A DNA stretch of 64,000 nucleotides from Escherichia coli (GTDB lineage: Bacteria > Pseudomonadota > Gammaproteobacteria > Enterobacterales > Enterobacteriaceae), in the NCBI RefSeq assembly GCF_003334355.1, contig NZ_QOWP01000003.1; one strand, given 5' to 3'. The translations under genes were made by a program, and so were the position numbers. The notes below the pieces were generated by a model that saw only the letters and a program-made list of their open reading frames with translations, had not been told where the DNA came from and did no database searches. Shown in pieces: positions 21,195 to 22,088 of the stretch (position 1 is its first letter; each line of letters begins with the position of its first letter).

Positions 21195-22088
21195 TTATTT
21201 ATAATAATCGGTGACAGATAAAATTTCCTGCAATCTCCGGGATTGAATATCATCAAGTATATTAAATGGTGAAGAACACCGCTCTGATTGAATAACCCCC
21301 TTTAACTGAAGGGCTTTTTTGAAAGTGGGAATAAAAGGAGAATTCACGCTGTAAACGGCCATTAGTTGATCGACTATCTGCTGATGCTGCGCGACTGCAA
21401 GTAAATCGTCATTCGTGAATGCTTGCATCCAGGAGGCAAAAAATTCAGGGACAATATTGGATAAACCACCAATACAGCCATCTCCACCAGATAGTATGTT
21501 GTGGGCAAAATTATTGTCATATCCTGCATACACTTCAAAATGAGGGATATTTTTCTTTACGGTATTGATAACCTGCGCAGTATGGAAAGCATCAGGGACG
21601 GTATCTTTCATACCAATAATATTGGGATATTTATCTGCCAGTCGTAAACAAATCTCTGGTGATACGCTGTACCCGGTTCTCTCCGGGAAGTTATAAATAA
21701 AAATATGAGCCGGGGTTTGGCTTGCAATCGTACTGTAGAAATCAAAAATAGCTTCATCATCCAGAGGGAAATAATAAGGACTGATGATCATCACACCATC
21801 CAATCCTTGCTCCCAGGCGTAATTGGCCAGTGATATTGATTCATTGACGTCCATGCGACTGGCTCCGGCATAAACCTTCATATCGCCTCGGGAAAACTCA
21901 CTACAGGTTTTAATCATTTGGCGGGCGTTTTCCATATTAAGAGAAAAAAACTCACCAGTACTGCCCATCACAACAAACCCGGACACGTGATTTTTAATAA
22001 AATCATAAATCTGAGTGTTTTGCTCAGGATCGATTCGCCCTTGTTCATCAAATATGGTGACAACGGGGGTTATGTAACGACTTTTCAT
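21195..22088 (-). CDS. DapA/NAL-family class I aldolase/lyase (dihydrodipicolinate-synthase-like; 2-keto-3-deoxy-sugar-acid aldolase or KdgD-like dehydratase candidate)
   Basis: 297 aa; GSTGE motif, YNFP motif and a candidate Schiff-base lysine in IGMKDT; AT-rich. Confidence 0.8.
   Translation of the reverse strand: MKSRYITPVVTIFDEQGRIDPEQNTQIYDFIKNHVSGFVVMGSTGEFFSLNMENARQMIKTCSEFSRGDMKVYAGASRMDVNESISLANYAWEQGLDGVMIISPYYFPLDDEAIFDFYSTIASQTPAHIFIYNFPERTGYSVSPEICLRLADKYPNIIGMKDTVPDAFHTAQVINTVKKNIPHFEVYAGYDNNFAHNILSGGDGCIGGLSNIVPEFFASWMQAFTNDDLLAVAQHQQIVDQLMAVYSVNSPFIPTFKKALQLKGVIQSERCSSPFNILDDIQSRRLQEILSVTDYYK

Follow-up and report, generated by a model that had tools for sequence, protein, structure and literature searches.

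The subject of this study is a lyase gene found in a 64-kb window of the Escherichia coli chromosome (the window being the whole stretch of DNA analysed, 64,000 nt of contig NZ_QOWP01000003.1). The gene, at positions 21195-22088 on the minus strand, belongs to a small accessory island, and its product (297 aa, RefSeq WP_000842398.1) is a class I lyase of the DHDPS/NAL family, predicted to be a 2-keto-3-deoxy-acid-sugar aldolase. The reading that we prefer, and which sequence and gene context make probable, is that of a class I pyruvate aldolase with a non-phosphorylated 2-keto-3-deoxy sugar acid as its substrate; the enzyme would come last in a self-contained three-gene operon under IclR control. 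That it has an aldolase role in general can be predicted with considerable confidence; as for the substrate, the chances that it belongs to the L-fuconate/D-arabinonate series appear about even.

A single open reading frame (ORF), with an ATG start codon, exactly fills the 21195-22088 interval on the minus strand; the strand was the sole detail absent from the preliminary description of the locus. The Pfam DHDPS model (PF00701) matches residues 3-291 over positions 3-287 of its 289 (E = 8e-60). The three motifs on which the preliminary description was based, GSTGE, YNFP and a lysine in IGMKDT, were checked directly and located at residues 42-46 (codons 21951-21965), 132-135 (codons 21684-21695) and 158-163, respectively, the codon for Lys161 being at 21606-21608. 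The protein was aligned, using MAFFT, with DapA, NanA, YagE and YjhH from E. coli K-12 and with KdgD from a Burkholderia plasmid, all taken from annotated records. In this reference alignment, Lys161 stands in the invariant lysine column together with the lysines of DapA (IGIKEA), NanA (GALKQT), YagE, YjhH and KdgD, i.e. at the position of Lys161 in DapA and Lys165 in NanA. Tyr132 is in the invariant YN column, at the proton-relay position held by Tyr133 in DapA, and Gly42, Gly45 and Glu46 are in the GxxGE column; Ser43-Thr44, within GSTGE, and Tyr105-Tyr106, within PYY, are also aligned and conserved. The comparison of active-site residues which had been proposed as a check on the preliminary description leaves the catalytic lysine intact. 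Lys161, Tyr132 and Gly42/Gly45/Glu46 are besides invariant across 18 members of the clade, which are 42-72% identical to the island aldolase. The AlphaFold2 model (mean predicted local distance difference test score, pLDDT, of 93.2) is a (β/α)8 barrel with a C-terminal helical domain; its top Foldseek match was YagE (2v8z, TM 0.93, root-mean-square deviation 1.6 Å), followed by many DHDPS and NAL structures. As judged from its residues, the island protein is a genuine Schiff-base (class I) lyase of the DHDPS/NAL superfamily, in which Lys161 is predicted to form the covalent adduct.

For subfamily assignment, we used the NCBIfam equivalog models and their curated cut-offs. None of these models reached its cut-off with the island aldolase: the DapA model TIGR00674 gave 165.6 bits (cut-off 206.15), the NanA models NF003164 and TIGR00683 gave 150.6 and 118 bits (cut-offs 281 and 382), the archaeal KD(P)G aldolase model 132 bits (cut-off 390), and the KdgD models TIGR03249 and NF002958 gave 85.3 and 88.5 bits (cut-offs 373.95 and 278). 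When the sequence was compared with those of solved structures (phmmer against the PDB), the best match was YagE (167.7 bits, E 3e-48) and the runner-up was a DapA (119 bits, E 1e-33). Pairwise identity was 30-32% with YagE/YjhH, 24-28% with DapA/NanA and 22-25% with KdgD. Because the equivalog scores are low, YagE comes first and identity to YagE/YjhH is no higher than 30-32%, the protein is best placed in a separate subfamily, the nearest characterised neighbours of which are 2-keto-3-deoxy-aldonate aldolases; by these comparisons it is a sister, not an orthologue, of YagE/YjhH. The DapA, NanA and KdgD identities were all rejected, on the grounds of the sub-threshold scores and of the genomic context. 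Two details of the active-site region are of interest. In KdgD, the YN...R loop is shortened by a deletion of three residues following the YN motif; the island aldolase shows no such deletion. Position 137, equivalent to Arg138 of DapA, a residue that binds aspartate semialdehyde, is an arginine in the island aldolase (codon 21678-21680) and a leucine in YagE, YjhH and NanA. Arg137 could have a part in how the aldehyde half of the substrate is recognised; an Arg138-type residue alone does not make the island protein a DapA, the operon context being that of sugar-acid catabolism.

The preliminary description had stated that the island encodes no partner aldehyde dehydrogenase (ALDH), and that the aldehyde would have to be consumed by an activity encoded elsewhere in the genome. 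The first statement holds, and the second is supported. A tblastn search with E. coli AldA (E ≤ 1e-3) found no ALDH-superfamily gene in the island or anywhere in the 64-kb window. The same was true of related loci: no ALDH gene lies within 10 kb of the aldolase at 91 homologous loci (1.47 Mb), and PF00171 is absent from the Pfam gene lists of the loci looked up by exact protein, six further loci included. The K-12 yjhIHGF and yagEFGH clusters are also without ALDH. What is found instead, in clostridial and fusobacterial clusters, is an aldehyde consumer of another kind, a FucO-like lactaldehyde reductase (440 bits, for a cut-off of 523). E. coli carries several ALDHs elsewhere in its genome, and aldA in particular is present in 5,418 of 5,426 E. 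coli genomes. The lack of an ALDH is ordinary for Dahms-type aldolase modules, and is no anomaly; it is explained at the island by the fact that such modules in E. coli routinely rely on the core enzymes AldA and FucO. Both are known to handle lactaldehyde and glycolaldehyde (PMC11199699).

The island itself was delimited by comparing the K-12 rlmB-yjfI region with the window (blastn). It is a 5,135-bp insertion between yjfI and rlmB (18136-23270), which takes the place of 13 bp in the K-12 spacer; its GC content is 38-48%, against 51-57% for the flanks. It is carried by 520 of 5,426 complete E. coli genomes, in single copy and with at least 99% identity in all. There are four genes only, in the order IclR regulator | aldolase - acid-sugar MFS transporter - UxaA/GarD-family dehydratase, the last three forming a minus-strand operon. 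The transporter (19843-21144, minus strand, 433 aa) is of the anion:cation symporter type and is a predicted acid-sugar importer. Its top NCBIfam match is TIGR00893, the D-galactonate-transporter subfamily, with 257 bits, i.e. below the cut-off of 395, and its Providencia and Morganella orthologues, 86-87% identical, occupy the equivalent position. The dehydratase gene (18214-19815, minus strand) encodes fused SAF and catalytic domains in a protein of 533 aa if the longest ORF is considered, or of 531 aa (18214-19809) from the RefSeq start. Its sole NCBIfam match is GarD (TIGR03248), with 222 bits for a cut-off of 731, and it shares 33% identity with K-12 UxaA, 29% with GarD and 35% with the split Firmicute type. 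Identity to its fused orthologues is higher (58-81%), and together they make up a close-knit clade. Cys137, Cys196, Cys229 and Cys300 are invariant with UxaA and GarD; four conserved cysteines have been reported for the UxaA/GarD superfamily (PMC6336799). The IclR-family regulator gene is divergent (22396-23196, plus strand; 259 aa from the RefSeq start at 22417).

Put together, these genes suggest the following route, in which the island would represent a reduced form of the oxidative L-fucose/D-arabinose pathway of Campylobacter jejuni and anaerobes, one that starts from imported acid. The MFS anion symporter would import an aldonic acid, from which the Fe-dependent UxaA/GarD-type dehydratase would remove water to give a 2-keto-3-deoxy acid, either L-2-keto-3-deoxyfuconate or D-2-keto-3-deoxypentonate. 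Lys161 of the aldolase would form a Schiff base with the C2 keto group and, with the assistance of Tyr132 and of the Ser43/Thr44 relay, retro-aldol cleavage between C3 and C4 would yield pyruvate and an aldehyde, L-lactaldehyde or glycolaldehyde. Finally, AldA would oxidise the aldehyde or FucO would reduce it; the genes for these two enzymes lie at other places in the E. coli chromosome.

To place the operon in a broader context, a scan of 100,044 species-representative genomes was carried out, from which the best 80 loci were kept (41-72% identity to the island aldolase); look-ups by exact protein added loci with Pfam-annotated neighbours. Clustering of the ORFs from the 80 scan loci and from the window gave four types of context, and neighbours were analysed at 75 loci. 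A sugar-acid dehydratase gene was present within 6 kb of the aldolase at 65 or more of the 75, of the UxaA type at 33 and of the IlvD/Edd type at 32, with no locus having both. The figure of 65 is a lower bound, because the simple ORF filter missed genes in two high-GC metagenome-assembled genomes (MAGs), L028 and L029, where dehydratases are revealed by Pfam and NCBIfam. At 35 of the 75 loci, there is also an IclR gene no more than 6 kb from the aldolase. In type A, which is that of the E. coli island, the order is IclR | aldolase - acid-sugar MFS - fused UxaA-like dehydratase. It is found in Providencia, Morganella, Klebsiella, Raoultella, Cedecea, Yersinia, Commensalibacter and several alpha-proteobacterial MAGs, and its chromosomal site differs from genus to genus, which is the behaviour of a mobile metabolic module. 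Clostridia, among them C. difficile, and Fusobacterium have type B, in which the order is IclR | KdgT - split SAF and catalytic UxaA subunits - FAH-family protein - aldolase; a FucO-like iron alcohol dehydrogenase is present in part of the loci. In type C, an IlvD/Edd-type dehydratase gene adjoins the aldolase gene, in the company of a GntR regulator, sugar ABC transporters and glycoside-hydrolase-like genes; this arrangement is met in many Bacillota and resembles K-12 yagEFGH. Type D is rare and is considered below.

A few other features of these loci can be mentioned. The type B loci include L005-L007, L034, L036, L037, L041, L043, L046 and L107; the top model for their FAH-family protein is 2,4-didehydro-3-deoxy-L-rhamnonate hydrolase (182 bits, cut-off 500), and the C. 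difficile dehydratase gene of this type is present on thousands of contigs. One aldolase, P0073, was found identical next to a UxaA-type cassette in two Clostridium records (L002 and L003) and next to an IlvD/Edd and GntP cassette in another (L004). The three records have a common chromosomal site and common flanks, and differ, around position 10001, in what stands upstream of the aldolase: KdgT, split UxaA and FAH genes in the first two, IlvD/Edd and GntP permease genes in the third. This looks like a swap of dehydratase/transporter cassettes upstream of a shared aldolase and FucO-like gene.

The leads as to the substrate come from two fucose-type clusters and from published work. In a delta-proteobacterial MAG (L103), whose aldolase and fused dehydratase have respectively 54% and 58% identity with their E. 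coli counterparts, the genes run as follows: aldolase, L-fuconolactonase-like amidohydrolase, L-fucose dehydrogenase, RhaM-family mutarotase, FucP and dehydratase. The L-fucose dehydrogenase (417 bits) and FucP (299 bits) are above their cut-offs of 300 and 280.4, and the lactonase-like protein (296 bits) is below its cut-off of 400. In a Desulfovibrio MAG (L009), the order is IclR | aldolase, FucP (310 bits, above 280.4), dehydratase (61% identity) and a lactonase-like gene scoring below its cut-off; of the two clusters, only that of L103 has the L-fucose dehydrogenase. A comparable locus, Cj0480c-Cj0490, converts L-fuconate to 2-oxo-3-deoxy-L-fuconate and then to pyruvate and lactaldehyde in C. 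jejuni. It comprises genes for an IclR regulator (Cj0480c), a DapA-like protein (Cj0481), a UxaA-type dehydratase (Cj0482/3) and an MFS transporter (Cj0484), together with a dehydrogenase, FucP, a lactonase, a mutarotase and an ALDH (PMC9100392; PMC6946681; PMC12566272), and C. jejuni cultures accumulate L-fuconate (PMC6946681). An L-2-keto-3-deoxyfuconate (L-KDF) aldolase, FucH, has been named as the route 1 enzyme (PMC11199699). On the side of the dehydratase, a UxaA/GarD enzyme active on D-arabinonate and weakly on L-fuconate has been characterised, and an L-fuconate dehydratase has been assigned by gene context (PMC6336799). The E. coli island has none of the sugar-side genes, and its transporter is of the acid type in place of FucP, so that the simplest reading is direct uptake of the acid, which would be L-fuconate, D-arabinonate or a stereo-relative of these. 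The FucH of anaerobes is reportedly described by Watanabe in a 2020 article in the Journal of Biological Chemistry.

Past the fucose-type cluster of L009 (14929-18528) are genes for an orphan galactitol-type phosphotransferase system EIIC-like permease, an aldo-keto reductase and an enolase-superfamily protein. The top model for the last is L-talarate/galactarate dehydratase (279 bits, cut-off 500), which suggests that this cluster holds a second dehydratase, of another superfamily.

Several observations weigh against the proposed route, or at least against its fuconate branch. The E. coli island is devoid of fucose dehydrogenase, lactonase, mutarotase and FucP genes, which makes the link to fucose rest on two MAG relatives with 54-61% identity. 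C. jejuni was not among the best 80 genome loci of the aldolase scan, all at least 41% identical. Throughout the alignment of 18 clade members, position 137 is basic (16 have Arg and 2 have Lys). Lastly, relatives of about 50% identity exist in quite different contexts: in type D (L032 and L106), an aldolase 50-53% identical to that of E. coli is preceded by a TRAP transporter, a split transketolase, a tartronate-semialdehyde reductase and an SDR, without a UxaA gene, an absence that can be seen fully in L106 since the L032 contig ends just past the aldolase. The GarR-type reductase of L032 is a 2-hydroxy-3-oxopropionate reductase scoring 476 bits, above the cut-off of 397; that of L106 is recognised at the Pfam level only. 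Type D may represent a separate pathway, and its existence means that substrate specificity may not be conserved at such a distance.

What else the aldolase might do was weighed against these data. It could follow a UxaA-type dehydratase as proposed and yet act in the breakdown of another aldonate, L-galactonate, D-altronate, D-idonate or an acid so far unassigned within this family of dehydratases, which we regard as possible though clearly short of probable; the products would include L-glyceraldehyde from L-galactonate and, by way of 2-keto-3-deoxygluconate, D-glyceraldehyde from D-altronate. UxaA/GarD enzymes for D-altronate and D-idonate are known, and one for L-galactonate has been proposed from unpublished data (PMC6336799). 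The dehydratase of the island, only 29-35% identical to K-12 UxaA, GarD and the split Firmicute type, is claimed by no NCBIfam equivalog, its transporter is a generic acid-sugar symporter, and relatives of the aldolase accompany several types of dehydratase, all of which would suit such a substrate. The sole informative extended clusters with a fused dehydratase nevertheless carry L-fucose dehydrogenase and FucP above curated cut-offs, E. coli already has a dedicated D-altronate route (uxaA), and K-12 uses L-galactonate by another route. We consider it improbable that the protein is a class I analogue of GarL, in which case an aldaric acid would be turned into a 5-keto-4-deoxy-aldarate and cleaved to pyruvate and tartronate semialdehyde; Arg137 would bind the distal carboxylate, as Arg138 of DapA does with aspartate semialdehyde, and GarR/GlxR, encoded elsewhere, would reduce the product. 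The dehydratase does have galactarate dehydratase as its sole NCBIfam match, but with a score of 222 instead of 731, and its identity to GarD (29%) is below that to UxaA (33%). Arg or Lys at position 137 is conserved throughout the 18 clade members, yet the arginine is found equally in the fucose-type clusters and in those with a FucO-like reductase, both of which would involve a neutral aldehyde; this weakens both the use of Arg137 as a marker of an acidic aldehyde substrate and the aldarate reading. The L032 and L106 aldolases lie two genes from a GarR-type reductase gene, and the Desulfovibrio cluster has its L-talarate/galactarate-dehydratase-like gene (279 bits, below 500); GarR-like neighbours, however, occur at 2-3 of about 97 loci, all without a UxaA gene, and there is no GarL or GarR homologue in the 64-kb window.

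Two further candidates differ from the proposed aldolase in their chemistry. In an enzyme of the KdgD type, or of the L-2-keto-3-deoxyarabinonate (L-KDA) dehydratase type, the Schiff-base lysine would drive dehydration, with or without decarboxylation, to 2,5-dioxopentanoate, to be converted to 2-oxoglutarate by an unlinked ALDH. The common superfamily, the shared catalytic lysine and a GarD-like dehydratase upstream, as in the glucarate/galactarate pathways, are compatible with this. The KdgD models, however, score 85-88 bits for cut-offs of 278-374, identity is only 22-25%, the KdgD loop deletion is absent, no ALDH is near any of the 91 related loci, where aldehyde reductases are linked instead, and the closest solved structure is that of an aldolase. 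From the pairing with a dehydratase, the lack of pairing with an ALDH, the occasional aldehyde reductase and the likeness to the ALDH-less yjhIHGF and yagEFGH clusters, it follows that a KdgD-type function is very unlikely and an aldolase likely, in agreement with the preference already expressed in the preliminary description for cleavage into pyruvate plus an aldehyde. That the gene encodes a second 4-hydroxy-tetrahydrodipicolinate synthase (a true DapA) or an N-acetylneuraminate lyase is scarcely credible, even though dapA (165.6 bits) and NanA (150.6 bits) score highest among the NCBIfam models and Arg137 matches Arg138 of DapA: neither score reaches its cut-off (206 for dapA, 281 for NanA), identity to the K-12 enzymes is 24-28%, the gene shares its operon with those for a sugar-acid transporter and a dehydratase, and about 90% of E. 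coli genomes do not have the island.

As for the control of the proposed aldolase operon, two operator-like boxes are present between the divergent genes (22110-22146): a palindrome, TTGTTCATATATACAAACAA, at 22110-22129, and GTTTTTAAATACAAAC at 22131-22146. The same pair (approximately GTTyGTATAwAyGAAC) is found upstream of the orthologue in Providencia, Morganella, Klebsiella, Raoultella, Cedecea and Yersinia, as well as in Desulfovibrio (L009), Telmatospirillum (L102) and L104; loci L013-L026 also have it, and it extends to alpha-proteobacterial MAGs. Its conservation from Providencia to Desulfovibrio points to control of the operon by the IclR regulator, for which the boxes are probable binding sites. 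Directly upstream of the boxes is a sigma-70-like promoter on the minus strand (22154-22181; TTGACT, 16-nt spacer, TATACT), a consensus match only (10/12), which would drive the predicted aldolase-transporter-dehydratase operon; the TTGACT element is kept in the enterobacterial orthologues. At the other end, a terminator-like hairpin followed by a T-run (18177-18200, minus strand) comes directly after the dehydratase stop codon, within the island.

Some copies of the island, or matches to it, are unusual. In several genomes (e.g. NZ_CP073624.1, NZ_CP081713.1 and NZ_LR536430.1), the island match is in two pieces, with an IS2 (IS3-family) transposase annotated within; in such copies the operon may be disrupted or subject to polarity. 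Matches were also obtained in 222 Escherichia plasmid records, nine being among the matches listed; many of the 222 (e.g. NZ_CP135710.1, 8668-9438) contain another, unrelated DHDPS-family gene, the product of which is 31% identical to the island aldolase. AP026530.1, a 655-kb record labelled as a plasmid, carries the island itself.

The RefSeq names of the four island genes, "dihydrodipicolinate synthase family protein", "UxaA family hydrolase", "MFS transporter" and "IclR family transcriptional regulator", go no further than the family. A literature search on their RefSeq accessions found no mention of them, and a search on fuconate use by E. coli found nothing specific. The kind of pathway is in itself known; what is new here is a specific functional hypothesis for the island and for the clade of fused UxaA/GarD dehydratases, namely that L-fuconate, D-arabinonate or a close stereo-relative would be converted to pyruvate and lactaldehyde or glycolaldehyde. 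If this is true, an anonymous island present in about one tenth of E. coli genomes becomes a defined nutritional trait, which would extend to Providencia, Morganella, Klebsiella, Raoultella, Cedecea, Yersinia and Commensalibacter, and a substrate is assigned to the whole dehydratase clade. A more ambitious proposal, to be taken as speculative and rather unlikely as it stands, is that the island gives about 10% of strains a nutrient of their own, L-fuconate or another oxidised deoxy-sugar acid, that it is adaptive in successful clinical lineages and that its dehydratase represents a new UxaA specificity class. The L-fuconate could be supplied by other gut microbes or by host oxidants acting on mucin fucose, a parallel being galactarate and glucarate, which are known to be used after antibiotic treatment; the names of island-positive strains include ST1193- and ST361-labelled isolates. 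The weight of the finding would rise if the module were a niche-defining route for oxidised fucose in the gut.

The island can be set beside several known systems. With YagE and YjhH, which are 2-keto-3-deoxy-D-pentonate/2-keto-3-deoxygluconate aldolases, the island aldolase has in common its superfamily, its fold and the catalytic Lys/Tyr/GxxGE set. The yagEFGH and yjhIHGF clusters also associate an aldolase with an acid-sugar dehydratase and a transporter, without ALDH, and yjhI codes for an IclR regulator. They differ by an IlvD/Edd dehydratase, a GntP/GPH transporter and Leu137, where the island has a UxaA/GarD dehydratase, an MFS anion symporter and Arg137 (Arg or Lys in the clade). The association of KdgD with 2,5-dioxopentanoate dehydrogenase is similar in its DHDPS superfamily, its Schiff-base lysine and its location downstream of a GarD-type or related dehydratase; the island clade departs from it by an identity of 22-25%, by the YN loop and by the link to ALDH, which is absent throughout the clade. 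In the GarD-GarL-GarR system, a UxaA/GarD-family dehydratase is likewise followed by a pyruvate-releasing aldolase, with the aldehyde passed to a separate reductase. GarL, however, is a class II, metal-dependent aldolase of the HpcH family, without any match in the window and with one marginal match of 69 residues (E 3e-5) in the related loci, and the island dehydratase is only 29% identical to GarD. There remains the Cj0480c-Cj0490 locus of C. jejuni, compared here by its described families, in which IclR, DapA-like, UxaA-type and MFS genes are adjacent as in the island. The C. jejuni/FucH route and that predicted for the island are alike in their chemistry, from fuconate to keto-deoxy-fuconate and on to pyruvate and lactaldehyde. 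The C. jejuni locus has in addition FucP, a mutarotase, a dehydrogenase, a lactonase and an ALDH (Cj0489/90), all of which the island does without, and the dehydratase, split in Cj0482/Cj0483 and in the clostridial type, is in the island a single fused chain of 533 aa.

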